From: Aeropyrum pernix K1
GTDB taxonomy: Archaea > Thermoproteota > Thermoprotei_A > Sulfolobales > Acidilobaceae
Assembly: GCF_000011125.1 (NCBI RefSeq)
Contig: NC_000854.2
Location: forward strand, 270,001-302,000
DNA: 32,000 bases
Direction: 5' to 3'
Below, piece by piece: positions 7,573 to 25,754 of the stretch. A program made the position numbers and the translations under genes. Every line of letters begins with the position of its first letter. Positions within the stretch are counted from its first letter, which is position 1. Under the pieces are notes generated by a model. That model was given only the letters and a program-made list of their open reading frames with translations. It did no database searches and had not been told where the DNA came from.

Positions 7573-7738
7573 GGGTCTAAGGGGTATGGTCAGCTGTCCT
7601 GGCCTTCCCCATGCTACCCAGAGTCGGCGCTTTTAACCCTCATCACTCCCGGGGGGGTGGCCTGTCTCACCAGGGTATTACAGACTGGTACCCGGGAATT
7701 ATGGTTGGGGTGTTAATAGGTATATCGGTGAGCCTCGG

Positions 7739-13067: not shown

Positions 13068-14156
13068 GTGGCCATTATACTGGGGGGGATGGTGCCTAGG
13101 CCGCCGTGGAAGTACAGGCTATTGGCTGCTATACACGCCCACAGGAACGCGGGTGACCCGGGGGCCGATCCTCTGGTGAGAAGGGCTGTGGAGAGGCTCG
13201 TAGCCGTGACCTCGAGGGTAGTGTTTGGCGTTGAGAAGCCTGGCTGGATAACCTCTGGGGCGAGCGAGGGCAATCTCCTAGCACTCTACACCCTCCGGGA
13301 GGAGGGGTACCGGAGGGTTGTAGCGTTCGACACGTCACACTACAGCATCAAAAAGTCGGCGCTGACGCTATCCATGGAGCTCGACCTCCTCCCCACCCAC
13401 GGGGGGAGGCCCAGGCTAGACCTCCTGGAGAGGAGGATCACGCCCGACTCTGTTGTTGTGGCCACCGTAGGCACCACGCAGGAGGGGCTAGTCGACCCAG
13501 TGGAGGAGATAGCGGGGGTGGCGGAGAGCGTTGGGGCAGCGGTCCATGTTGACGCGGCCTACGGAGGCTACATAGCAAGGTTCCTAACCGGGAAGGCCCG
13601 GTTCAGACTCGAACCTCCCGTCATGACGGTAGTGGTGGACGCCCATAAGATCCCGGAGGCGCCCCCTCCCGCGGGCGTGATACTCGCCTCCAAGCAGAAA
13701 CTCCTAGACAACCTGTGGTTCGAATCACCCTACATACCAACAGGCAGGCAGTTCGGCATCCTCGGCACCAGGCCGGGAGGCCCCATAGTGGCGGCGTGGA
13801 GGAGGGTTGAGGACCTCGAGAGAAACCCCGGCTTCCCCAGGCTCGCCAGCATCCTAATGAGGAGGCTCAGGAAGACACTGAAAGCACTTGAAAGACTCGG
13901 CTACGAGACACCAGTAACTCCCGACCTACCAGTTGCCTGCGCCACACACCCCAGACTGGGAGAGGTCCTCGAAAGGCTCAAAGCCTCGGGAGTACGAGTC
14001 TACAGGTGCCGTTCACCCAAACCGTGCCTTCATGTAACAAATTATGGCAGGTTGTGTCGGGCACGGCTGGGGTCATCACGGTCTCCCCGGGGCTGCCTAC
14101 GGAAGCCCCTGGGGGCTTCCCTCGGGAACCCCGGGGTCACCGGGTTAGGTTTATAA
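13068..14156 (+). CDS. PLP-dependent group II decarboxylase (MfnA-like tyrosine/aspartate decarboxylase); the 3' tail is suspect
   Basis: ITSGASEGNLLAL, VATVGTTQEGLVDP, HVDAAYGGYI and the PLP-lysine motif VVVDAHKIPEAP. The last 40 codons or so (RCRSPKPCLHVTNYGRLCRARLGSSRSPRGCLRKPLGASLGNPGVTGLGL) are Cys/Arg/Gly-rich, run through GC palindromes and end exactly at the GC drop. The annotated 3' end may therefore not be native. Confidence 0.8.
   Translation: MAIILGGMVPRPPWKYRLLAAIHAHRNAGDPGADPLVRRAVERLVAVTSRVVFGVEKPGWITSGASEGNLLALYTLREEGYRRVVAFDTSHYSIKKSALTLSMELDLLPTHGGRPRLDLLERRITPDSVVVATVGTTQEGLVDPVEEIAGVAESVGAAVHVDAAYGGYIARFLTGKARFRLEPPVMTVVVDAHKIPEAPPPAGVILASKQKLLDNLWFESPYIPTGRQFGILGTRPGGPIVAAWRRVEDLERNPGFPRLASILMRRLRKTLKALERLGYETPVTPDLPVACATHPRLGEVLERLKASGVRVYRCRSPKPCLHVTNYGRLCRARLGSSRSPRGCLRKPLGASLGNPGVTGLGL
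14101..14120. repeat. Palindrome ggaagcccc-tg-ggggcttcc (9-bp arms)
   Basis: Read directly from the sequence. Flanked by two further GC palindromes, ccccgggg (14085-14092) and accccggggt (14128-14137). Confidence 0.9.
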
Positions 14157-14178
14157 GCTTAAAGCCTTATAAGTTTTA

Positions 14179-14193
14179 TTGGGGATTCCCCAA
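14179..14193. repeat. 15-nt perfect palindrome ttggggaTtccccaa
   Basis: Read directly from the sequence. It lies about 30 nt inside the island's left edge. Confidence 0.9.
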
Positions 14194-14220
14194 TATGAGC
14201 TACATAACGAAGAGATATGC

Positions 14221-14251
14221 TTAGATAGGCATTCAACACCAGCCTATCTAA
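14221..14251. repeat. Inverted repeat ttagataggc / gcctatctaa (10-bp arms, 11-nt spacer)
   Basis: Read directly from the sequence: 14221-14230 is the reverse complement of 14242-14251. Confidence 0.9.
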
Positions 14252-14265
14252 CAGCTCTACGCGGT

Positions 14266-14324
14266 ATAGAAAGATACAGTTCGATACAGAAAGTTACAGC
14301 TTAGTATTTCTGCCCCCGGTACAG
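14266..14324. repeat. Phased direct repeats: atagaaagatacag / acagaaagttacag (12/14 identical, period 20) containing G-N-TACAG heptamers
   Basis: Heptamers: gatacag at 14273, gatacag at 14283, gttacag at 14293 (exact 10-nt spacing), and ggtacag at 14318. Confidence 0.85.
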
Positions 14325-14390
14325 CGGGGTGAGAATAGTGATGATGCCGAGTATAAGACCGAAAACCTATATAAAATATCTAGCTTTGCA

Positions 14391-17300
14391 TTAAATAGGT
14401 CCTCCTGCACCGAAGTAGTATTCTTCCCGTTTCTCGATACTCACTTTCCTTCTGAACGGAATTCTTTCGGCAGGATTCTTTATACAAAGTATGACCGGTT
14501 TCTCTGTTCTAACACCATAGACTATATAGAGCCAGTAATTATCTCCCTTCTTCTCAGCCACCTTGAACTCCTCGCTTTTAAGCCCAAAGTTAAGGGATCT
14601 CTTAATTTTAGTCTTAACTTCGATGAACCTCTCCTCTTTGATACTTCCATCTTCTCCTCTTTTTACACTTCTCACATCATAATGCTCATGTCCCGAAACC
14701 CTTGTAGGTTCCCTATCTTCTTGTTTCTCATAGTCTAGTACAGTGGAGATAGCTTCATCTTCAGCCCAACCCCACACTTCCTCACTAGGCACATCCTTTA
14801 CTTCAGGTAGATTTGCAGAACTAATCATTATGAATGTGGGCTCCCTGATTTTCACTTGGGGCTCATATGTATGAAAGAATTTTTTAGCACCCAGCTTCTC
14901 CTTAACCTCCTCATACTCTTCAAGCATTTTAATTAGCTTAACAGCCCCATTCTTGAGCGCCGTTTCATAGAATGTATTGGGCGAAGAACTCATGATTTGG
15001 GGAATTAAATTAAGGACATCATCTAAGCCGTAAACTTCATCTACAGGAACTGAATTATCAAGTATTTTAAGGAGCTTGCTAAAGAGCTCCTTTCCCCTAA
15101 GTATAGTTAAGCTGTATGTCTCAACATTAGCCAATATCCCTATAGGCTCCCTATATCTAATTTCTCCGCCTATTAATACCTCAACTTCCGATAGAAGCAT
15201 TACCTCCTTTTCACTGCTTTGATAAACAAAATACTTTGCATGGTCATCTGTTCTGAAATAGGCCTGCAACCTTTTCAAGAAGGTCTCGGGGTTACTAATA
15301 GGTAGTTCAAACACAGTTCCATCTTTAGATCTTAAAAGTATCTTATCCTCTCTTTCCTCGAAACTTAGGTCTAGTATCTTAGAAAATGCTTCTCCAGCAT
15401 TTTTCAATGTCTCGACAACATCCTCCATATCTCTAAAGCCAGTTAGATGTAGCAACTCCTCCCGAACCTTTTCAGCGTCTGCTCTAACCGGAAATATTCT
15501 CTTATACTTTATCTCCCTTACGAGCCTCTTCAACGCCTTTATAAAGGCTTTAACAAAAGCACGGGCATCTTTGGCAACTAATTCGATAATCCTCGCTTCC
15601 GAGAGCGAAATTTTCCTATTCTCGAAGTTTATCTCAATTGGTATAAGGCCACCTATGGTCTCCCTCTCTTCAACAGCATGTTCTAATAATTCATTCCTTA
15701 TGGTTGAAAGGAACACTTGTTCTCCTAATATTGGTTCGAGTTTCCCTACTGAAATTGATATTCCATAGAGCTTCGCAAAGACAGTTTCAGCTACCTCTTT
15801 CTCCAGGCCATCGGCTAGGAATAGGTTAAACACATAGGTAGTTTTGTCCTGACCATATCTCCAAACCCTACCTATTCTCTGCTCAAGCCTTATGGGAGAC
15901 CAGGTTATCTCATAGTTGATAATGACATTGGCGTACTGAAGATTTAGTCCCTCACCAGCGACATCAGTTGTGACAAGAACTCTTCTACCATCCTCAGACA
16001 ACCACCTCTTTATATCCTCGATTTCACCCCTATTCTCAGAGGTAAATACCCTTACTATGCCTGGATCTCCAAACTCATCCTCGGCCCACTTCCTCAGCTT
16101 CTCGTAGAGATAAGTTGCAGTATCCTTAAACTCGGTGAACACAATGGCTTTCTGGCTAGCCAAATCTTTAAACTCGTCGGGAAGCTCCTCGGGAGGCGTA
16201 TATAGCACCAGTCCAAGTATTTTCTTCAGGGTTTCTACTTTGGAATCGACCGCTTTGCCTACTAAAATATCTTCAGCATACTTCTGAGCTTTCTTTAACT
16301 CTTCCCTAAACATATCGTCAAGGAGCTTATCGAAGTATATAGCTAGTCTCTCAAACTCTTCATCGAGCTCCTCATCTATTTCTCCGATATCTCCTGAGAG
16401 TATCTCGTCTAACTTCCTAGCGTAGTCTTCTATCTCCTCAGCTATTTTCTTCTGAGCCTCATCTGGGGTATACCCTCTGTCAATAAGCTCTATGAACCTG
16501 CCCCTCTTTTCCACAAGTTTGCCGAAAGTCTTTACTAGAGCCTGAGGACTCGAAAGCCCTCTCTTGACGAGTAAGGTTCTTAGTAAAGCTACTATGCTCT
16601 GTGCTCTACCTGTTTTCCAGCCTAGCTCCTTTACAATGTAGGTGTAATAGCTTCTTAGATAGGATGTTGTAAGCTCGGTTATAGTCCGCAGAAAGCCTCT
16701 CTCAACATCGTTAGGCTCTATAAGAACCGCCAGCATGTTGCAGGGTTTGAATATCTCGGCTCTTTCATAGATCTTGTTCACGTCATCCTTGTTTCTCCTG
16801 AAGAGGATTACATTATGTGTTCGCTGGTAGAATTCCGGCTTATCAAAAACTTTCTCAAGAGTGCTCACACTAGTTACGTCCAGAAGCGTTGGATCAACTA
16901 GTGCTAAACGTGAGAGATAATCGTTGGCCTTTCCTCTATGGGGTGTAGCCGATAACAGCAGCACTATAGCATCTCTATTCTCCATTATAAGCTTCCCCAG
17001 GTTTCTCCATCTCATGTTCGGTTCTCCGCCAACGACACCGAGCTTGTGGGCTTCGTCAACTACTATTGCATCCCATTTGTTTCTTTGGAGAAAAGCCATA
17101 TACTCTGGCCGCTTTAGAGTATCAATAGACCCTATGTACCATCCGGAAGGTAGCTCGGGTTGTTTGGCTCGGAAGTCTAGGCTTTTCCTTTCTATTAGGA
17201 TTGGATTGATGCCCATGCTTCTCATCTCGTCTTTCCATTGTTCAACAAGTACCGCTGGTACTGCGATTAGAACCCTCCCTAGCTTCTGGTTCTTGTAGTG

Positions 17301-17510
17301 TTCTATTGTCTTGAGTATTCTGAGTGCTGTAACGGTTTTTCCGAGCCCTATCACATCGGCTATGAGAATTCTAGTAGGCTTTATGAAGAGAGACTTGGCC
17401 ACCACCTCAGTCTGATGGAGTAGGGGATTTTTTTCGCCGTATATGAAAAAGGGATTGGAATCAAGATACCTTTCCGCGGTCCACAAGAGGGGGGCTATAT
17501 ATGGGTTCAT
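14391..17510 (-). CDS. SNF2/SWI2-family helicase (DEAH) with a C-terminal PD-(D/E)xK-like (DUF3883-like) module
   Basis: 1039 aa. Helicase motif I ADVIGLGKTVTA, II VVDEAHKLG, III LLLSATPHRG, V VTTDVAGEGLNLQ, VI LEQRIGRVWRYGQ. C-terminal 123 aa: DEAISTVLDYEKQ...HYDVRS...RFIEVKTK...LKSEEFKVAEKKGDNYWLYIVYGV. Confidence 0.9.
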   Translation of the reverse strand: MNPYIAPLLWTAERYLDSNPFFIYGEKNPLLHQTEVVAKSLFIKPTRILIADVIGLGKTVTALRILKTIEHYKNQKLGRVLIAVPAVLVEQWKDEMRSMGINPILIERKSLDFRAKQPELPSGWYIGSIDTLKRPEYMAFLQRNKWDAIVVDEAHKLGVVGGEPNMRWRNLGKLIMENRDAIVLLLSATPHRGKANDYLSRLALVDPTLLDVTSVSTLEKVFDKPEFYQRTHNVILFRRNKDDVNKIYERAEIFKPCNMLAVLIEPNDVERGFLRTITELTTSYLRSYYTYIVKELGWKTGRAQSIVALLRTLLVKRGLSSPQALVKTFGKLVEKRGRFIELIDRGYTPDEAQKKIAEEIEDYARKLDEILSGDIGEIDEELDEEFERLAIYFDKLLDDMFREELKKAQKYAEDILVGKAVDSKVETLKKILGLVLYTPPEELPDEFKDLASQKAIVFTEFKDTATYLYEKLRKWAEDEFGDPGIVRVFTSENRGEIEDIKRWLSEDGRRVLVTTDVAGEGLNLQYANVIINYEITWSPIRLEQRIGRVWRYGQDKTTYVFNLFLADGLEKEVAETVFAKLYGISISVGKLEPILGEQVFLSTIRNELLEHAVEERETIGGLIPIEINFENRKISLSEARIIELVAKDARAFVKAFIKALKRLVREIKYKRIFPVRADAEKVREELLHLTGFRDMEDVVETLKNAGEAFSKILDLSFEEREDKILLRSKDGTVFELPISNPETFLKRLQAYFRTDDHAKYFVYQSSEKEVMLLSEVEVLIGGEIRYREPIGILANVETYSLTILRGKELFSKLLKILDNSVPVDEVYGLDDVLNLIPQIMSSSPNTFYETALKNGAVKLIKMLEEYEEVKEKLGAKKFFHTYEPQVKIREPTFIMISSANLPEVKDVPSEEVWGWAEDEAISTVLDYEKQEDREPTRVSGHEHYDVRSVKRGEDGSIKEERFIEVKTKIKRSLNFGLKSEEFKVAEKKGDNYWLYIVYGVRTEKPVILCIKNPAERIPFRRKVSIEKREEYYFGAGGPI

Positions 17511-17520
17511 GATCTCACGC

Positions 17521-18069
17521 CTAGTCGAGCTTGTAGAGGACTTTTACCGCCCTGCCAACTCTTAGCATATGCCAATGCCATGCCGGGTTACTGGAGGCCT
17601 TCAACTCTCTATACCTATCCATCACTATTGTTGACAAAATGTTGATAAGGTTAGCGTTCATGGTCAACAAAAGATTCCTTAAAGCATTGAACCTCGCTTC
17701 TAAAGGCTTTTTATAAGTTGAAACCGTGACCGCAAAGAGTAGATGCCTCCGGAAGGCTACCTCGTTCGGCAGAAGTACAATAGGTTTTTCATAGTAGAGG
17801 TTCTGGCCTCGAATCTTAGACATTCTAACTTCAACAGTCTCCCCGCCGAGCTCTCTAGAGAAATCCAGTACTAGCTCCATAAACCTAACCGGGAAGGCTA
17901 TTCTTGCTTCGCCATTCCCGGCTGCTCTTGACGGCTCCTGACCTTCAAGTAGGCTGTAATATTCAATGTAAAACCTATGGGTTCTCAAAATGCCCTCATA
18001 CCTGTAATAAGGTTTCTTTCTCTTCCTAGCGGTAAAGGTGAAAACGTACCGTCCCTCCCTGGCCATCAA
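17521..18069 (-). CDS. Hypothetical 182-aa protein, operon component (possibly the DUF3780-type partner)
   Basis: ATG-started ORF lying 3 nt after the ATPase stop and 10 nt before the helicase start. Basic N-terminus (ARKRKKPYYRYEG). No catalytic motif recognised. The family assignment is from memory of gene neighbourhoods, not from an alignment. Confidence 0.7.
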   Translation of the reverse strand: MMAREGRYVFTFTARKRKKPYYRYEGILRTHRFYIEYYSLLEGQEPSRAAGNGEARIAFPVRFMELVLDFSRELGGETVEVRMSKIRGQNLYYEKPIVLLPNEVAFRRHLLFAVTVSTYKKPLEARFNALRNLLLTMNANLINILSTIVMDRYRELKASSNPAWHWHMLRVGRAVKVLYKLD

Positions 18070-18072
18070 CTA

Positions 18073-21000
18073 TTACCTCCTACTAGCTTTCTTTTTAACC
18101 TTAAACTTCAATCCCTTGGTACTGACTAGCAGCTTGGCCACATCACGTAGCTCTAGCTCTCCTTCGGGACTATACTCTATGTCGACAAGAGCACTCGCCT
18201 CTTTCATGTTTCGCAGTATGCTGTTTATGGGACTCCATAGTAGCTCGAAAACTTTAGGATCTGTAGTATCGACATTGAAACTTACGCTAACAGCCTTACC
18301 CGATACTGACAAGGAACCCCTTATTTTACCGGGATAAACTTTCGCAACCCTAGTTATGCTTGGCAAACCTACGACATCATTCACTCTGATACTTACAAGC
18401 TTAGCGTCCTCCTCTACCGCTTCACCCTCTTCTCCTATAGTTATCTCTTCCTCTATCCACTCTCCCTTAACAGAAACGCTTATTATTCTAGAATCCAGTA
18501 TGCTCCCGTTACCATACACTTCAACTTTGATACGGTAGTTCCCAGCCCTTCCAGCCTTCAACCTAAACTTGATAGGGAGAGGAGACTTGCCTTTGAACTC
18601 ACTAGGCTCTACGCTAAGCCCCTCATCCGGCTGAAGCTTTACTAGGAATTCGTTTTCATAGTTCTTTACGATGACTTCACCTGCAACTTCGTATTCTTTA
18701 TCTTCCAGTATATCATCTGGGAGCTCGTAATTCAACTCCACGAGGTATTTCTTCTCCTCGTAGAAGAGTTTCCCAGATTTTATCACGTTTTTGACATCGA
18801 ATTTAATATCCCTTATATCGAATACTTGACCGCTCCTATCCTTAACCTTGATAATCTTGTCGCTAGGGATGGACTCAGTTTCCCTTATTAACCACTCGTC
18901 GAAAACCTTCTCCCAGTAAACAAGCTCTACATCGTCCCACGAAGCTTTAATCCTGGTTAAATGCTCTCTTACTTTTTCAAGGAGTTTATTCCCTTCATCC
19001 AGAGCGTCTGCCTCCTCTTTGCTCTTAAAGATTGGCTTCCAAAGAAGCTTTCCCTTCACCCTGATAGCGTAATCTAAGCTTTTGACTAGGTCTTCAACCG
19101 CACCGATGAAGTCCCTGTATCTGATTATAGGTACGTTAGCCTTATCCGTGCTAAGTATGAAGTTCCAGAGTTCACCAACTTTTATCGGCTCCTCCTTTGG
19201 GTTTTTACCGAGATAGTCCTTAACTATGGATATTATGTTTTCACCCTTGAACTCATATGGAATTAGCTCTTTCTCCCTCAGGAACTCCTCTACTAATGGG
19301 AGAATTGGCTTGTCCGATTCTAATGACAGCCCTTCCTCGAAGCGTATCTGCCCAAGCCTATAGTAGTAGACTTTACGATAGCATCTGTTTATCATGTTCC
19401 ATGAATGTATATAATAATAGTCTTTCTTGCTTTCGACTTTCGTCTTTAGAAGATTTAACAACTCCTTTAAATATTCCTCGTCCCCTTTAACCACTTTCTC
19501 GCCTAGGAAAGCTCTCAAGTTCTCTTCTCTTATACTCTCCGTGGCAACATAGTACTTTAATATCTCTAATAGGCTGTCCCAAACAGTCTTACCCCTAAGC
19601 CCGGCAAGCTCTCTAATACCTGCGATATCCTCGGGAGCTAGCTTCTCCTCTTCACCCATACCCTCTACATGAGGCGCTAACACAACGATGTTATTTCTCC
19701 CTTTAAGAACCTTGAACAGCTCGTCTTTAGATATTTTATCAGCGAAAACTATTAATGCGGGATCTCTAGAGTCTAGAATCTCCTTAGGTATAGTAGCAGC
19801 ATTTTTGACTACAGCGTATCCAGCGAATACTGACTCCTCCTTGTAGCCCTTCGGAGGCCTTCCCCTCCCCCTCCTACCTATTAATCCCGATTCTAGAAGT
19901 TCTGCCAGCTTGTTTTTAGCCATCTCATCAGTAACATTCTTCTTCAATATCTCGATTAGCTCCTCAACAGAAGGTATGATTGTGAAGAACCATTTTGCAC
20001 TATCGCTTTCCGGGTCGCCGTGAACTATTAATTGGGGTAAAACACTCCTTAAAATGCCTAGAACACCCTTGGCGTCCTGCTCCGTCGGTGATACCGAGTA
20101 TATGAGATCTGCTGTAGTCGGGAACTCGCCCATGTTCATAGGTAGACCTAAGCCTACGAGGCTGTGCAACCATATGTTAGAAGCTAGTTTGAGGCCCAGC
20201 TTCGCTTCGTCTTCCTTGAGGCTCTTTAGCGCCCTTGACATAACCCTCTCATAGAACTCCTCTTTACTCAGCTTCTTCAGATTACCGAGGTTTTCGGGTA
20301 CTACCACGTTGCTTCTAAGTATTAAGTAGAATACTCTGTATTCATCAGGAGCGTTTCTTAGTATGGTTTCATCCAACACCTCACTTACAAACAACGGTAT
20401 GTGGTGCGGCATTATCAGATTTATTTCATCCTCAAGGGCGTCGAACAACCCTTCCTTCAAAGCCAATACTGTTTGAACAGCAATTTTAATCGCATCCCTA
20501 GTCCTCTGAAGGTACGGGAGCCTATAGGCTAGCTTCTCAAGTACGTTAAGAAACATGGGATGGAACGGGTAAGTCTCCTCAGCCTCCCTCCAGAAGCTCC
20601 TGTCGTCGAGGATCCTCCTAACCTGTGCTGGATACTCCCTATTAAACTCTCTGGAAACCAGCTCGTTAAAGAACTTCTTCAGCTCATTCTTCTTATGCGC
20701 GAATATCCTCTTCCTAAGTATCTCAGCTAGATCACGCCTTCCAACAGGCTTTATTATCTCCACGCTCGGCCTACTCAGAACCTCGTTAATTGCCCGTATT
20801 AATTCGGGTCTATGCACATACTCCATACCAGCTTTGGCTTCAGCCCCCCCTCCTCTAACCTCATAAGGTATGGATATTACTACTGCGACCTCGCTAACGT
20901 TGTACTTGCTTAGAGCCTCAGCTAGATTCATAAGAAACGCTGAAATCTTAGTGGGCTCTAGCCCACTCTGATCATAATATCTGCCAATCTCGTCTATCAG

Positions 21001-21639
21001 TACTAATGCTCTACTCCCGTTCAACAATTTAGACACGTCATCGGCATAGGGTGCTGTCTCCCTTTCGTCAGAGATTTTCACAATATCGTATCTACCAAGC
21101 TCATAGCCTAGATAGCCCCACAGCGTTTTGACCCTCCTACCACCAATCTCAATCGGCCTAACAGGGCTTGGAGCTAGATCACTATACTTGCAGTCTATGA
21201 CAACTAGGTTGAGGGACATATTCTTAATTAAATCCCAGTTCCCATCGACAAAGTCAGCTATATCGTTGTCGAGTATCCTCAGCTTGGATATAACGCTCTC
21301 TTTATCGTGTGAATCTCTAACAAGCTTAAACACATGGTATAGGAGTATGAGCGAGTGTGTTTTCCCTCCACCCAGGTCTGAGGGTAGGAGAATCAGGTTG
21401 CTTGAAACCGTGTAACGTTTGCCACCTATGGTTTCGGCTTTAAGACCTAGCAGATTCATAAACGCCTTTATGACCAGCTCCTTCATAGAGTCTGTTAAGT
21501 GTGTTCTGCTGAAGAACTCTGCCGGATCCTGGATGAATATAGGGGCGTTTCCCTTTACTAAATCACCTAAGTCAACGGCGGGCTCGTACCTTAAATTCTT
21601 TACTTCATCCCTTACCCTCAGGCTCCTTACATCAACCAT
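18073..21639 (-). CDS. Large P-loop NTPase, DUF499/BrxC(PglY)-like
   Basis: 1188 aa. Walker A SDLGGGKTHS (aa 87-96), Walker B ALVLIDEIGRYY (aa 211-222). Long helical middle region and a beta-rich C-terminal region (YEVAGEVIVKNYENEFLVKLQPDEGLSVEP...YRIKVEVYGNGSILDSRIISVSVKGE). ATG start 3 nt after the methyltransferase stop, preceded by gagggag. Confidence 0.85.
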   Translation of the reverse strand: MVDVRSLRVRDEVKNLRYEPAVDLGDLVKGNAPIFIQDPAEFFSRTHLTDSMKELVIKAFMNLLGLKAETIGGKRYTVSSNLILLPSDLGGGKTHSLILLYHVFKLVRDSHDKESVISKLRILDNDIADFVDGNWDLIKNMSLNLVVIDCKYSDLAPSPVRPIEIGGRRVKTLWGYLGYELGRYDIVKISDERETAPYADDVSKLLNGSRALVLIDEIGRYYDQSGLEPTKISAFLMNLAEALSKYNVSEVAVVISIPYEVRGGGAEAKAGMEYVHRPELIRAINEVLSRPSVEIIKPVGRRDLAEILRKRIFAHKKNELKKFFNELVSREFNREYPAQVRRILDDRSFWREAEETYPFHPMFLNVLEKLAYRLPYLQRTRDAIKIAVQTVLALKEGLFDALEDEINLIMPHHIPLFVSEVLDETILRNAPDEYRVFYLILRSNVVVPENLGNLKKLSKEEFYERVMSRALKSLKEDEAKLGLKLASNIWLHSLVGLGLPMNMGEFPTTADLIYSVSPTEQDAKGVLGILRSVLPQLIVHGDPESDSAKWFFTIIPSVEELIEILKKNVTDEMAKNKLAELLESGLIGRRGRGRPPKGYKEESVFAGYAVVKNAATIPKEILDSRDPALIVFADKISKDELFKVLKGRNNIVVLAPHVEGMGEEEKLAPEDIAGIRELAGLRGKTVWDSLLEILKYYVATESIREENLRAFLGEKVVKGDEEYLKELLNLLKTKVESKKDYYYIHSWNMINRCYRKVYYYRLGQIRFEEGLSLESDKPILPLVEEFLREKELIPYEFKGENIISIVKDYLGKNPKEEPIKVGELWNFILSTDKANVPIIRYRDFIGAVEDLVKSLDYAIRVKGKLLWKPIFKSKEEADALDEGNKLLEKVREHLTRIKASWDDVELVYWEKVFDEWLIRETESIPSDKIIKVKDRSGQVFDIRDIKFDVKNVIKSGKLFYEEKKYLVELNYELPDDILEDKEYEVAGEVIVKNYENEFLVKLQPDEGLSVEPSEFKGKSPLPIKFRLKAGRAGNYRIKVEVYGNGSILDSRIISVSVKGEWIEEEITIGEEGEAVEEDAKLVSIRVNDVVGLPSITRVAKVYPGKIRGSLSVSGKAVSVSFNVDTTDPKVFELLWSPINSILRNMKEASALVDIEYSPEGELELRDVAKLLVSTKGLKFKVKKKASRR

Positions 21640-21642
21640 AGT

Positions 21643-24600
21643 TTACACTCCCTCAATATAGTCTCTAACCAGCTTCGCCAAATTAGTTTCAGGATCGCTG
21701 GGATAGCTGCTTATAACCTTCGCTACCTCGACAGCCTCCCTAACCTGTTTGGGGTACTTACTGTATAGGATCTGATACGTTGTTTTAAACTCCGACCTAC
21801 CCTGTTTAGCATAGTACTCGAGCAGGTGGAGAGCATCGATAGAATTGAAACTTCTCCTCTCAGCATCCATCTTTATCGGGTTAACGCCTCTCACGCCAAG
21901 CAGCTTCTTAAGCTCCTCAATAGTGGAGTCTAGTGGTTCGAGCAAGGCGAACGCCTTTTGCTTAGCGACATTAGCGCCTTTAACCTCCTCGGCAGACTTT
22001 ATGATCCCGGCGTTCACAAACGTCTTGTAACCCTCCTTTTCCGGTCTTTCCACACTCCTTAAGAAGCCGTAGGAGAGAATTATGACGTCGTGGCTTGACA
22101 GAACTATAGGCTCTGCAGGGGCACTAGACAGTGTTGTCTGCCCCCCCGGCCTAGAGTAGCGCCTGAAGATGGCTTTAGAGGCAAGGTAAAATAGCGCTTC
22201 CGGAGACCTTATCGTCTCTGTAGCATTGGCTATGACCCTAGTGGCTATAGCGTAAGACTCCCTAACAACATCCCTCGATGTAAGCCCCCTACCAAAGTGG
22301 ACCACCCTATCGTAGGATGTGAACGTTGAGAGAGCTCCAAGCATCGTAGACAAGAACATATCGCTATCCGTCAGACCGGATTTAAACGCCTCATCCCTAG
22401 CCCTCCTAGCGTTCTCCAAAGCCTCTCTATACACATCAACATACTCGCCAACTCTTCCACCATCCTTACCCCTTTTCCTCCAGACAACAACGATGCTGGA
22501 CTCTAGAGCAGTCTTACCCCTAGCCGTAACCCTCTGCGGAGACTCAGTAGCGAAAGCCCACGCCCTAGTAACCCTTAAACCGGCTCTCCGCCACCCGGCC
22601 TCTACAAGCTCAATCCAAGCCTCTGGACTAGAGTGAGCAAAGTAAGTAACAATTAACCCATCATCCTTTAGAAGCTCTGACAGCCTCTTAAAGGCCATAC
22701 CCATAAGCCTCTCATAATAGTCCTCAGCCTCTCTAACCCCGAAGTACCTTAGTCTACCCTCATTATAGCTAATCTCATTTAATGCAAAACCCTCCCATTG
22801 AGTATTGGACACTAATGCATCACTATGGAACCTAAGAGCCAAGCCATCCCCACTTAAAGACCTCTTCAGCCAAACATAGTAGAAATCACTAAGCTCAGCA
22901 TAAGGTACATCATCCCTATAAGGCGGGTCAGTAACAATAACATCAAACCTCTCACCCTCTAGCTTACTAAGCACGGTAGCATCGTCAAGCAAAACCCTAA
23001 CCCTACCAGAACTACCAGAAACAGCAGAAACAAGATACAACAGAGCATCTACGACTGTCTCCACGCTATCGAAATAGTTATATGATATATCCTCGTGTGC
23101 TAGCCATGTATCACCCCAATTCCATGTCATTGCAATCCCGCGTGTAGACAAGCTATCTTGAACTTTATTGAGAACCCAGGAATCCGGCTTCCATCTTGTA
23201 ACAAGGCTATTATAGGTCATCGAGCGTAGAAATGCTATTGCTAAGTATGTTGTTATTGCTTCTGCGTATTTGTGGGCTTCTTCCCTGCTCCACCCTTCTC
23301 TCAGCTTCTCCTCCTCGATTCTCTTGCCTGTTTCTCGTATTAGTTTGACGAGTTTGACTAGGGTTAGGAGCTGGCGTGGGTTGAATAGCTTGAACCACTT
23401 ATCATTACCCCATGTGTAAGTCATCAAATTTCTATTATCATAGCTTGGTATTGGTTCTGTTGGTATGTCTGGGTCTCCCCATAGTTGTCTTAGTTTTTCT
23501 AGCGCTTTCCACAGCTTCTCGTCGTCCCGGTCCGTTGCCGGCTCGAACTTTAGGTCTTTGTTTGCTATCTTTACTTTGACTAGTAGTCTTGGTCTTGCTA
23601 GTGAGTTTCTCAGCTCCTCTAAAGCTATTCCTCCTTCAAGGTATTCTTCCAGCTTCTTATTCCAGTCCTTTAAAGCATGTTTTGGATAGAATTCTAATCT
23701 GCTCCTGATCAGGGTGTTGGCAACCTCGTTTTTAGTTCTGTAGGTCCTGCCCGTCCTTGGGTCTATATATGTTATTCTGCTACCGCATAGTAGGCATTCC
23801 GCTAGCTCGGGTCTACCGGCGACGTTAGGCGATGGTGACCCGCCTGTCTTGCCCTCGATTATCTTGATACCGATTTTATTCCCTTCCGTCTCGGGTTTCA
23901 TGTACGCATACCTCTTCCCTTTAACCTTGGCCAGCCACCAGTTGCCGACTAGTGGTGTATACCTGCCGCAGACGGGGCATTTGACTTCCCAAGTTCCAAT
24001 GTATACTGCTGCATCTTCGTCGTAAAGCTCTTTAATGTCAGGGTCTTCTCCAAGCCTCTTGGTAATCCATCTACCCCACCTGGCAACATCGTAGATCAAG
24101 GCTGGTATCTCGTAGGTTTTCCCGTCAAATATGCTCTTTTCCCTGATAAACCCGCTAACAGCTTTGTCAAGCTCTAATTCTCTAATTTCCCTTCCTAGTA
24201 CCCTGACCCTCGCTTCTGAATACTCCTTCGGATACTCAAGCATGGCTTTTAGGAATATGTAGGCTGTCGGCAGAAACTCTACGGCAACAACCTCGCCTAC
24301 ACCAAGCCTGATAGCCTCGAGGGGTATCGAGCCAAAGCCGGCGAAGGGATCCAACAGTTTAGCCTGCTTAAACCTCTCCTTCACACCACGAGGTAGAATA
24401 GGATTAAGCCTGTGAGGCACTTTACCAGCAATTAACCTCAACTCGCTCAGGAAGCCAGTCTTATCATAATCTCCGGGCAATAATGCCCCAGCTATTACAG
24501 CTCTAGCACCCGCCAGCGGCTTCCTAGTCCACCAGAACACCATCTCCCAGTAGGGCGGGCGGCCGCCACCCTGTTTCTCCCTGGCAGAAACCTCGTTGAT

Positions 24601-24666
24601 CAAGCTAATAGGGAATCTCGAGGTCTCTATAAACCTCTTATCCTCCCCACTAGCCACGTCTCCCAC
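21643..24666 (-). CDS. DNA methyltransferase (N6-A/N4-C type) with an inserted Zn-ribbon, DUF1156-like
   Basis: 1007 aa with a GTG start. N-terminal FPISLINEVSAREK...WWTRKPLAGARAVI. SAM motif I LLDPFAGFGSIP (aa 104-115, nt 24322-24357). CxxC...CxxC: CPVCG at aa 230 and CLLCG at aa 291. Catalytic motif IV VIVTDPPY (DPPY at nt 22918-22929). About 420 aa of C-terminal extension of unknown function. Confidence 0.9.
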   Translation of the reverse strand: MGDVASGEDKRFIETSRFPISLINEVSAREKQGGGRPPYWEMVFWWTRKPLAGARAVIAGALLPGDYDKTGFLSELRLIAGKVPHRLNPILPRGVKERFKQAKLLDPFAGFGSIPLEAIRLGVGEVVAVEFLPTAYIFLKAMLEYPKEYSEARVRVLGREIRELELDKAVSGFIREKSIFDGKTYEIPALIYDVARWGRWITKRLGEDPDIKELYDEDAAVYIGTWEVKCPVCGRYTPLVGNWWLAKVKGKRYAYMKPETEGNKIGIKIIEGKTGGSPSPNVAGRPELAECLLCGSRITYIDPRTGRTYRTKNEVANTLIRSRLEFYPKHALKDWNKKLEEYLEGGIALEELRNSLARPRLLVKVKIANKDLKFEPATDRDDEKLWKALEKLRQLWGDPDIPTEPIPSYDNRNLMTYTWGNDKWFKLFNPRQLLTLVKLVKLIRETGKRIEEEKLREGWSREEAHKYAEAITTYLAIAFLRSMTYNSLVTRWKPDSWVLNKVQDSLSTRGIAMTWNWGDTWLAHEDISYNYFDSVETVVDALLYLVSAVSGSSGRVRVLLDDATVLSKLEGERFDVIVTDPPYRDDVPYAELSDFYYVWLKRSLSGDGLALRFHSDALVSNTQWEGFALNEISYNEGRLRYFGVREAEDYYERLMGMAFKRLSELLKDDGLIVTYFAHSSPEAWIELVEAGWRRAGLRVTRAWAFATESPQRVTARGKTALESSIVVVWRKRGKDGGRVGEYVDVYREALENARRARDEAFKSGLTDSDMFLSTMLGALSTFTSYDRVVHFGRGLTSRDVVRESYAIATRVIANATETIRSPEALFYLASKAIFRRYSRPGGQTTLSSAPAEPIVLSSHDVIILSYGFLRSVERPEKEGYKTFVNAGIIKSAEEVKGANVAKQKAFALLEPLDSTIEELKKLLGVRGVNPIKMDAERRSFNSIDALHLLEYYAKQGRSEFKTTYQILYSKYPKQVREAVEVAKVISSYPSDPETNLAKLVRDYIEGV

Positions 24667-25230
24667 ACCTCGACAGGAGCTGTTACGCGATGATGTCTTA
24701 CCAGTGTGACCGTGAGAATTTTCCTGCCCGCGAGAGCCAAGGAATACACCTTGTAACGCATTCCATAGCCAAAGCTATAAAAGCCCTTGTAGAGGCTTTC
24801 CCTGTAGTAACAATTTTAGGGAAAAGCACTTTCAGGCACCCTCTATCAGAGGAGGTCATTACTTTGCCCAAGACTCAACAGGCCCCCAGCAGCTCCCACA
24901 CAATCATAGGCTCTCAAGCTTATGGCTTGAAACGTTTGAGAGCATGTTTAACATACTCAGGCATAACAGGCGAGTTTTTCCTTAGCCTCACAACTAATCC
25001 CAATATCCTTCCCATACATTTCCAACCATGTATAGAAGCTGCTCCTCTGATAATGAGATGGCGCGCCTCCCGCTTAGCTTATGGGGAATCCAAAGTCTCC
25101 ACTGATCACGTCACCGTGCATTACCATCGTTCCTTATAATTTGCTCGACTGTACGAGGGTGAAACGTGCTATACAGTACTTTTCCCATTGTTTGTGCTTT
25201 AGTTTTTAATAATGATGTTAAAGATGTTTG

Positions 25231-25325
25231 TGGAGCCGCCGGCGGGATTCGAACCCGCGACCACCGGCTTACAAGGCCGGCGCTTTAGGCCCCGCGCAGG
25301 GGTCTGCCTGCTGAGCTACGGCGGC
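25231..25325 (-). tRNA. tRNA-Thr (anticodon UGU), CCA encoded, with about 19 extra nt in the D-loop region (putative non-canonical intron)
   Basis: Minus strand: GCCGCCG-TA-GCTC-AGCAGG[CAGACCCCTGCGCGGGGCC]TAAAGC-G-CCGGC-CTTGTAA-GCCGG-TGGTC-GCGGG-TTCGAAT-CCCGC-CGGCGGC-T-CCA. Acceptor, anticodon and T arms pair perfectly. The gene is 95 nt, against about 76 expected. Confidence 0.85.
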
Positions 25326-25380: not shown

Positions 25381-25457
25381 TGGGGGCCTGGGAGCTTTGG
25401 GGGCTGGTGCCGCCGCCGGGATTCGAACCCGGGACCTCCGGATCTCCCAGGCCCCCA
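25381..25457. repeat. 14-nt perfect inverted repeat linking the tRNA-Met intron and the inter-tRNA spacer
   Basis: tgggggcctgggag (25381-25394) is the exact reverse complement of ctcccaggccccca (25444-25457). An 8-nt core, ctcccagg, recurs at 25327-25334. Confidence 0.95.
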
Positions 25458-25529
25458 GGCGACTTCGGCCTGTGGGTGTTTAGCCGGGCCGTATGAGTCC
25501 GGCGCTCTGCCAGGCTGAGCTACGGCGGC
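25405..25529 (-). tRNA. tRNA-Met (anticodon CAU, elongator-type; could be tRNA-Ile2), CCA encoded, 48-nt intron at canonical position 37/38
   Basis: Minus strand: GCCGCCG-TA-GCTC-AGCCTGGCA-GAGC-G-CCGGA-CTCATA[48-nt intron CGGCCCGGCTAAACACCCACAGGCCGAAGTCGCCTGGGGGCCTGGGAG]A-TCCGG-AGGTC-CCGGG-TTCGAAT-CCCGG-CGGCGGC-A-CCA. It is not initiator-like: G1-C72, and no GGG/CCC anticodon stem. Confidence 0.9.
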
Positions 25530-25571: not shown

Positions 25572-25754
25572 TTAAGCTTGGTGTAGCTGTTTTAGTATGG
25601 CTTCGCGTATGAACTCGCTCCTTGTTAGCCCCTTCTTCTCTGCGCGGCGGTCTATCTCCTCGAGGAGGTCTGCCTCGATCTTGAATGTGACGACCTTGAT
25701 CCTTTTCTCCCTCCTTCTGGGGGCGTAGGTGACTATTATCTCCATGGCTGCCAT
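25572..25754 (-). CDS. Ribbon-helix-helix (CopG/MetJ-type) DNA-binding protein
   Basis: 60 aa. Beta-strand VVTFKIEADLL followed by two helices, EEIDRRAEKKGLTRSEFIREAILKQL. This is the classical RHH pattern. Confidence 0.85.
   Translation of the reverse strand: MAAMEIIVTYAPRRREKRIKVVTFKIEADLLEEIDRRAEKKGLTRSEFIREAILKQLHQA

Follow-up and report, generated by a model that had tools for sequence, protein, structure and literature searches.

We analysed a 32,000-nucleotide window of the Aeropyrum pernix K1 chromosome (NC_000854.2, positions 270,001 to 302,000 of the forward strand; all coordinates given here without a locus name count from the first base of this window). Within it lies a 10.8-kb segment of GC content 0.45 (14396..25227, no strand assigned), delimited by breaks in blastn homology at 14395/14396 and at 25225–25228, which is a foreign, low-GC, strain-specific genomic island of K1. 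Judged from its sequence, the cargo of the island is one four-gene operon, a DUF499-centred, BREX-related (Hma/MANTIS-like) defence system. The four genes are on the minus strand, separated by gaps of 3 to 10 nt, in the order methyltransferase, ATPase, small protein and helicase.

The first gene (21643..24666, minus strand) encodes a DUF1156 N6-adenine-type DNA methyltransferase of 1007 aa that resembles HmaB and MtsC. Pfam DUF1156 (PF06634) was matched at residues 18–65 (2.9e-10), and the motifs FAGFG (residue 108) and DPPY (residue 580) are present; the best PADLOC match was the generic MTase_II model (1e-203), and HmaB scored 1e-57. The second gene (18073..21639, minus strand) encodes a DUF499 AAA+ ATPase of 1188 aa, similar to HmaC, MtsA and BrxC. 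It matched Pfam DUF499 (PF04465) over its full length with 1083 bits, its best PADLOC match was HmaC (1e-31), and it carries the motifs GGGKT and LVLIDE. As expected, its sequence agrees at 100% of residues with the database protein of A. pernix K1. The last gene (14391..17510, minus strand) encodes an HmaA-like protein of 1039 aa, in which a Snf2-family helicase is joined to a C-terminal PD-(D/E)xK nuclease (NOV_C/DUF3883). Pfam matches were to SNF2-rel_dom, Helicase_C and NOV_C (6e-20, residues 916–1005), the best PADLOC match was HmaA (2e-61), and the helicase motifs GLGKT and DEAH are at residues 55 and 152. The nuclease motifs YDVRS...EERFIEVK are conserved in the K1 helicase and five homologues, and nuclease activity is predicted from them.

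The third gene (17521..18069, minus strand) directly follows the ATPase gene, the position held by MtsB in MANTIS, and encodes a small protein of 182 aa from an unannotated family. No match was found in Pfam, PADLOC, NCBIfam or PHROG, and neither the protein nor its homologues gave a Pfam or PADLOC match even at E ≤ 10. The family is very small: a profile search of 1.84 billion proteins retrieved 17 representative clusters. The AlphaFold model of the K1 protein (pLDDT 89.5) has five strands followed by helices; no sequence match was found in the PDB, and no PDB fold matched at E ≤ 0.001. A relationship to the haloarchaeal DUF7680 protein, which occupies the same position, was considered and rejected (hhalign probability 0.2%).

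A sequence-only reading of the window had described a low-GC segment with sharp changes of composition, Lys-rich proteins with A/T-ending codons and a lower-GC thermophilic donor. All three points were supported. The computed discontinuity is large, mean GC being 0.448 (maximum 0.482) in ten 1-kb windows of the island and 0.600 (minimum 0.532) in twenty from the flanks, and GC at third codon positions (GC3) being 0.44–0.54 in the four island genes as against 0.71–0.84 in ten flanking genes. Compared with the flanks, Lys is doubled in the island proteins (8.0% versus 4.0%), and Ala (6.4 versus 9.5) and Gly (6.1 versus 8.5) are depleted. The nearest homologues were found in metagenomic contigs, a Desulfurococcales metagenome-assembled genome and Infirmifilum, that is, in low-GC Thermoproteota or hyperthermophile hosts (GC 0.36–0.41), where the GC content of the cassette (0.39–0.41) fits that of its surroundings (0.33–0.41). 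All four proteins show congruent identities of 62–73% to the same loci, which indicates that the cassette moves as a unit. A megablast search of the island against plasmids gave no match. The segment thus combines the hallmarks of a horizontally acquired island: a compositional break, strain-specific presence and closest homologues in other lineages.

To define the boundaries, we compared K1 with the corresponding loci in A. pernix BDMD01000054 (L098) and in A. camini AP012489 (L095), three genomes in all. Both flanks are collinear with those of the relatives; the left flank is 97.4% and the right flank 97.8% identical to the A. pernix locus, and identity to A. camini is about 84–85%. On the right, homology restarts at 25225–25228, 3–6 nt past the CCA end of a tRNA-Thr(UGU) gene (25231..25325, minus strand; Rfam tRNA, 61.1 bits). 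The proposal that the right edge coincides with this CCA end therefore held to within 6 nt. On the left, homology with the relatives ends at 14010, within a decarboxylase gene, and restarts for 85 bp at 14311–14395, which places the start of the island proper at 14396 and not, as had been proposed, at 14151. The latter position is off by 245 bp and is a GC switch (0.64, then 0.37) inside a separate 300-bp insertion. The 85 bp at 14311..14395 (plus strand) are the displaced end of the decarboxylase gene (27 codons and the stop) and form the left border of the variable slot. The helicase stop codon (14391–14393, minus strand) overlaps the decarboxylase stop codon (14392–14394), and the slot extends from the latter to a few bases past the tRNA-Thr 3′ end.

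In both relatives, the slot delimited by these two ends holds a 1.7-kb cassette for Csx1 (CARF + HEPN; L098 11025–12722 and L095 11030–12707), with a GC content of 0.44–0.45 in each. Aligned from end to end, the two csx1 cassettes show 84% identity and so have diverged as much as the flanks. This identifies csx1 as the ancestral occupant of the slot and the K1 island as a later replacement. The sequence-only reading had assumed insertion into an empty site; when this was checked no empty site was found, both relatives holding csx1 there. No remnants of csx1 were detected in the K1 window. The operon would thus have displaced a CARF-HEPN cassette that still occupies the slot in other Aeropyrum genomes. 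In the relatives csx1 is split into two or three open reading frames (ORFs), and the cassette may be decaying. Defence hotspots between core genes, such as the hma region of Halomonas (PMC11232893), likewise have fixed flanks and a defence cargo that varies from strain to strain. Unlike that hotspot, the K1 slot is archaeal and lies between a tRNA 3′ end and the stop codon of a convergent gene, as seen in the three genomes compared.

The related cassettes contain a gene that K1 lacks. In six of six, the helicase gene is directly followed by one for a protein of 417–423 aa with the motif HLHLDH (HxHxDH), an RNase J-like/beta-CASP metallo-beta-lactamase (L099 17220–18491, L101 17053–18315, L102 10126–11379, L103 15113–16366, L104 12764–14020 and L105 11062–12318). 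PADLOC has no model for this protein, which its sequence suggests is an accessory nuclease, so far undescribed, in this variant of the BR family. A search of the K1 window revealed no beta-CASP remnants. Comparison with the relatives showed that the K1 helicase is full-length at its C terminus and has two or three extra residues, partly read from flank DNA, which places the left junction only a few nucleotides from the native stop and no more than about three codons from the helicase stop. At this junction the ancestral cassette would have lost its fifth gene, the one for the beta-CASP nuclease. The earlier proposal of an element reduced to its defence cargo is correct in that only defence cargo is present; the cargo itself, however, is incomplete, since it lacks the fifth gene of all six relatives. 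One related cassette has no gene for the 182-aa protein; in its place is a 367-bp gap (L101 13570–13937) without a homologue by tblastn, so the small subunit is not universally retained. None of the six related cassettes has an integrase or a tRNA gene alongside, and one lies among housekeeping genes. Another, metagenomic, is part of a defence island that contains a Piwi-domain protein and an EVE-domain protein (L099 1–7000).

We next compared the operon with catalogued defence systems. The BR/Hma family has been described and classified (PMC12839542), and defence by Hma, including HmaA, was demonstrated experimentally in Halomonas (PMC11232893). The supplements of the classification paper (PMC12839542) contain no Aeropyrum entry. 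Three gene-level features of the BR family are present in K1: a DUF499-type AAA+ ATPase, an N6-methyltransferase with N-terminal DUF1156 and a Swi2/Snf2 helicase in the same operon. Type-1 BR, represented by HmaABC of Halomonas meridiana, has the same three core enzymes as K1, including the PD-(D/E)xK C terminus of the helicase. The Hma helicase, however, begins with a TUDOR domain, for which, judged from the coordinates, there is no room in K1; in K1 and five homologues the helicase core begins at about residue 30, with Walker A (GLGKT) at 55. Moreover, type-1 BR is a simple three-gene locus without a beta-CASP gene, whereas K1 and five of the six relatives have a conserved small gene between those for the ATPase and the helicase, and the ancestral K1-type cassette has a fifth gene for the beta-CASP nuclease (six of six relatives).

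MANTIS (Gao_RL, type-2 BR) shares with K1 a set of four genes, a small protein directly after the DUF499 ATPase, a TUDOR-less helicase and the DUF1156 methyltransferase, and is the best available mechanistic model. It differs in having a standalone DUF3780 protein, MtsB, whereas the 182-aa protein is not DUF3780 by sequence, and in that its nuclease is of the HKD/PLD type and that of K1 is PD-(D/E)xK. In line with this difference, the HxK(x)4D motif was not found in the helicases of K1 and five homologues, nor was a PLD domain detected by Pfam. The equivalog cut-offs of NCBIfam for the Gao_RL anti-phage proteins were missed by a wide span (DUF499, 41 bits versus 1200; DUF1156, 138 versus 1000), and the K1 gene order differs from those of both Hma and MANTIS. 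Type-3 BREX (BrxC, PglXI and BrxHII) has a homologous ATPase, methyltransferase and Snf2 helicase (PMC12839542), to which K1 shows weak matches; unlike type-3 BREX, K1 has no PglZ, BrxA, BrxB/F or BrxL, and its helicase carries a fused nuclease.

The PD-(D/E)xK nuclease is thus type-1-like, and the lack of TUDOR together with the small gene is type-2-like. On these sequence features, the K1 operon is a variant of the catalogued BR superfamily and not a clean member of a named subtype. In pNG600 of Haloarcula marismortui, a DUF7680 protein (L106 3483–4100) occupies the MtsB position of a locus with DUF499, DUF1156 and helicase genes. With DUF3780 of MANTIS, the K1 182-aa family and DUF7680, at least three unrelated small-protein families occupy the position after the DUF499 ATPase. 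It is possible, but on balance doubtful, that the cassettes constitute a subtype of their own, of which K1 carries a beta-CASP-less derivative, exchanged independently of an integrase at a tRNA-side hotspot. Three features would define such a subtype: a TUDOR-less helicase with a PD-(D/E)xK nuclease, an activator-like small subunit whose fold has no counterpart yet among solved structures, and a dedicated beta-CASP nuclease. The five-gene hyperthermophile variant and the truncated K1 copy are modestly new, the superfamily itself having been catalogued recently.

In MANTIS, the ATPase loads the methyltransferase, the small MtsB stimulates hemimethylation and the helicase-nuclease restricts unmodified DNA (bioRxiv 10.64898/2026.09.23.753747). 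By homology, we infer that this scheme may serve as the working mechanism of the K1 operon. By analogy with the characterised relatives, the ATPase would load the methyltransferase onto short recognition sites, and the cell's own DNA would thereby be marked. The 182-aa protein probably assists the ATPase in this loading step. Unmarked DNA of viruses or plasmids would be passed to the translocating helicase-nuclease and then cut.

The sequence-only reading had noted no integrase, transposase or conjugation gene, and indeed no such domain was found in any ORF. A 561-bp leader without a recognisable gene (24667..25227, no strand assigned) extends from the start of the operon to tRNA-Thr. Integrase remnants were sought with Pfam and PHROGs in all frames of the leader and in ORF149 (24690–25139, plus strand), and none was found; neither ORF149, which is probably spurious, nor the other leader frames matched any Pfam or PHROG family. 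The leader shows no similarity to the upstream regions of the related cassettes or to the csx1 cassette. A search for repeats of att sites or tRNA parts in 13900–25200 (repeat search and blastn-short, word size 7) gave only chance matches of 8–9 nt. Since the cassette is without a recombinase of its own, in K1 and in other hosts, its exchange was most likely accomplished by host recombination, which would have been either homologous, via the conserved flanks, or by a microhomology or illegitimate junction. A tRNA-specific integrase encoded by the element is less likely. One element-like trait is present, the junction at the tRNA gene. However, the two end points of the island are also those of the relatives' csx1 cassette, which argues that they mark the end of selection on the neighbouring genes and not a recombinase site.

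The alternative that survives best is that the island is the remnant of a virus or plasmid that integrated at the tRNA-Thr 3′ end and from which deletions later removed the integrase, the far att site and most other genes. We regard this as unlikely, although it has some attractions. The right junction lies no more than 6 nt from the CCA end, and the far end of the cassette has been cut short, so a deletion or an imprecise junction did occur there. Moreover, Aeropyrum hosts tRNA-integrating proviruses with SSV1-type integrases, namely APSV1 and APOV1 (PMC4158269) and AGV1 (bioRxiv 10.1101/2021.04.21.440749). APSV1 and APOV1 are flanked by att direct repeats and split integrase halves (PMC4158269). 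Like the K1 island, they are foreign DNA beside a tRNA gene in the same genome, but the att repeats and integrase halves are found only in the proviruses. Within 13900–25200 no portion of the tRNA is directly repeated, no intN or intC was found and no ORF is integrase-like. In addition, the older csx1 cassette has the same two end points, the six related cassettes adjoin neither an integrase nor a tRNA gene, and the deletion would have had to end exactly at the decarboxylase stop codon. The tRNA-directed integration first proposed is therefore unsupported: there is no copy of the tRNA 3′ end, no int fragment and no tRNA or integrase at the related cassettes.

Several points nevertheless weigh against our preferred account of a BR-type defence operon exchanged by host recombination. 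An integrase acting on the tRNA gene would likewise produce a junction within 6 nt past the CCA, and both the integrase and the far att site could have disappeared in a later deletion. We found no donor and no second Aeropyrum strain with the island, so homologous exchange through the flanks is a hypothesis. The flanks beside the island contain no imported divergent tract except the 85-bp decarboxylase tail (89% identity), and relaxed selection accounts equally well for the divergence of that tail. The 182-aa protein has no sequence link to MtsB/DUF3780, its suggested role following from its position. Finally, methylation and restriction by the K1 operon are predictions from homology, and without the beta-CASP gene the system may or may not function. 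With these points taken into account, we still consider it probable that the operon came from a lower-GC hyperthermophilic archaeon, is of BR type, replaced csx1 and arrived by an integrase-free route.

Far less likely is an old, vertically inherited segment that the relatives lost and whose low GC reflects a gene-specific bias. The csx1 cassette of the same slot is likewise low in GC (0.44–0.45) despite predating the split between A. pernix and A. camini, so low GC alone is no proof of recent arrival. However, the island was not shared by all close relatives, as the sequence-only reading had named as a sign of vertical inheritance: it is absent from A. pernix BDMD01000054, whose left flank is 97.4% identical, and from A. 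camini, and both share csx1. The sole Aeropyrum homologue found was K1 itself, the next best match being 71% identical. Vertical inheritance would also require two independent, identical replacements by csx1, and this alternative is close to refuted. A chimera or other assembly artefact of the reference sequence can practically be dismissed: K1 short-read contigs do break near both ends of the region (14037, 14251/14276 and 25259), but these breaks, of a kind that repeats cause, fall within the tRNA and the 300-bp insertion. None of them coincides with an island junction, and both junctions are spanned by Logan assemblies of K1 from at least two independent runs at 100% identity, from 25259 down to 14253.

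The gene to the left of the slot belongs to the core genome and encodes an MfnA-like pyridoxal phosphate decarboxylase (gene body 13068..14010, plus strand; Pfam Pyridoxal_deC; NCBIfam MfnA, 1.7e-40). Identity of the protein to its orthologues is 96% for the other A. pernix strain and 84% for A. camini. In K1 the reading frame continues into the 300-bp insertion and stops at 14156, and this ORF end is an artefact of the insertion. As a result, the conserved final 27 residues (CPRYNGVRIVMMPS...) are replaced by 48 unrelated residues encoded by the insertion. The displaced tail is 88–89% identical to the gene ends of the relatives, but six of its 27 residues are changed, compared with 96% identity over the remainder of the protein, and it is probably no longer translated. 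Scanning a genome collection with the decarboxylase returned bacterial and distant archaeal homologues only (≤45% identity) and did not reach K1 and its relatives. A more distant relative of the gene (L112) has toxin–antitoxin genes downstream and no tRNA. Further out in the left flank, at 7585–7650 on the minus strand, there is a C/D-box sRNA (Rfam sR21, 64.7 bits).

The 300-bp insertion itself (14011..14310, no strand assigned) lies outside the island, is missing from both relatives and splits the decarboxylase gene with a 4-bp duplication (TGCC). It is highly structured, its fold on either strand being much more stable than that of shuffled sequence (z −4.5 and −6.7), and holds a long GC-rich hairpin with TATA-like palindromes beside it. 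The hairpin gives a full-length match to Rfam Sso133 at 14083–14150 (minus strand), below threshold (38.8 bits versus a gathering score of 44); a literature search on Sso133 RNA found nothing. A spliced archaeal intron of the bulge-helix-bulge (BHB) type was rejected, as no helix-bulge-helix motif fits a precise excision of 300 nt and the codons downstream evolve fast. The probable lack of translation of the displaced tail and the absence of a BHB motif together argue against RNA splicing. A classical miniature inverted-repeat transposable element was also rejected, the sequence as read having no terminal inverted repeats and no second copy having been demonstrated. Exact-pattern scans for the insertion were empty in three viral searches and a first metagenome search, and a second metagenome search gave chance palindromes only. 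K1 short-read contigs end at 14037 in three samples and are also interrupted at 14251/14276, a pattern expected of a multi-copy repeat; one that began near 14008 would give the stop at 14037 in a k = 31 graph, if Logan uses k = 31, as we assumed. One possibility is that the insertion is a small mobile element of a new kind, with an sRNA-like hairpin.

On the other side of the slot, the tRNA-Thr gene is 100% identical in both relatives, and its CCA is encoded at 25233–25231. ARAGORN wrongly calls it Pro(GGG); in the Rfam alignment, the anticodon loop is CUUGUAA (UGU), and the D-loop contains a 22-nt insertion (intron) at a non-canonical position. The adjacent minus-strand tRNA gene (25408–25529), missed by ARAGORN, has the anticodon CAU and a 50-nt intron, and the 3′ 37 nt of the two tRNAs are 89% identical. 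Just past both tRNAs, a gene for a 60-aa ribbon-helix-helix (CopG-like) protein (25572–25754) is conserved in the csx1-bearing relatives and thus lies outside the island, although MANTIS operons sometimes have a CopG-like repressor.

Overall, apart from a few unusual details, the segment is an ordinary defence island of the strain-specific kind, and none of the findings overturns current understanding. It provides a clean, dated archaeal example of a defence cassette that was swapped at a fixed chromosomal slot without a recombinase of its own, and it shows that adjacency to a tRNA gene is not evidence of integrase action. Since csx1 has had a GC content of 0.44–0.45 since before the two species split, low GC is a poor acquisition clock in Aeropyrum. 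K1 is presumably the source of the commercial enzyme ApeKI, which would make the recognition motif of the BR system of practical interest; the methyltransferase M.ApeKI of K1 is documented. A. pernix K1 can be cultivated at 90–95 °C, and its thermostable BREX-related system would allow direct tests of what the small subunit does, of whether the beta-CASP nuclease is dispensable and of methylation by an ATPase-loaded enzyme.

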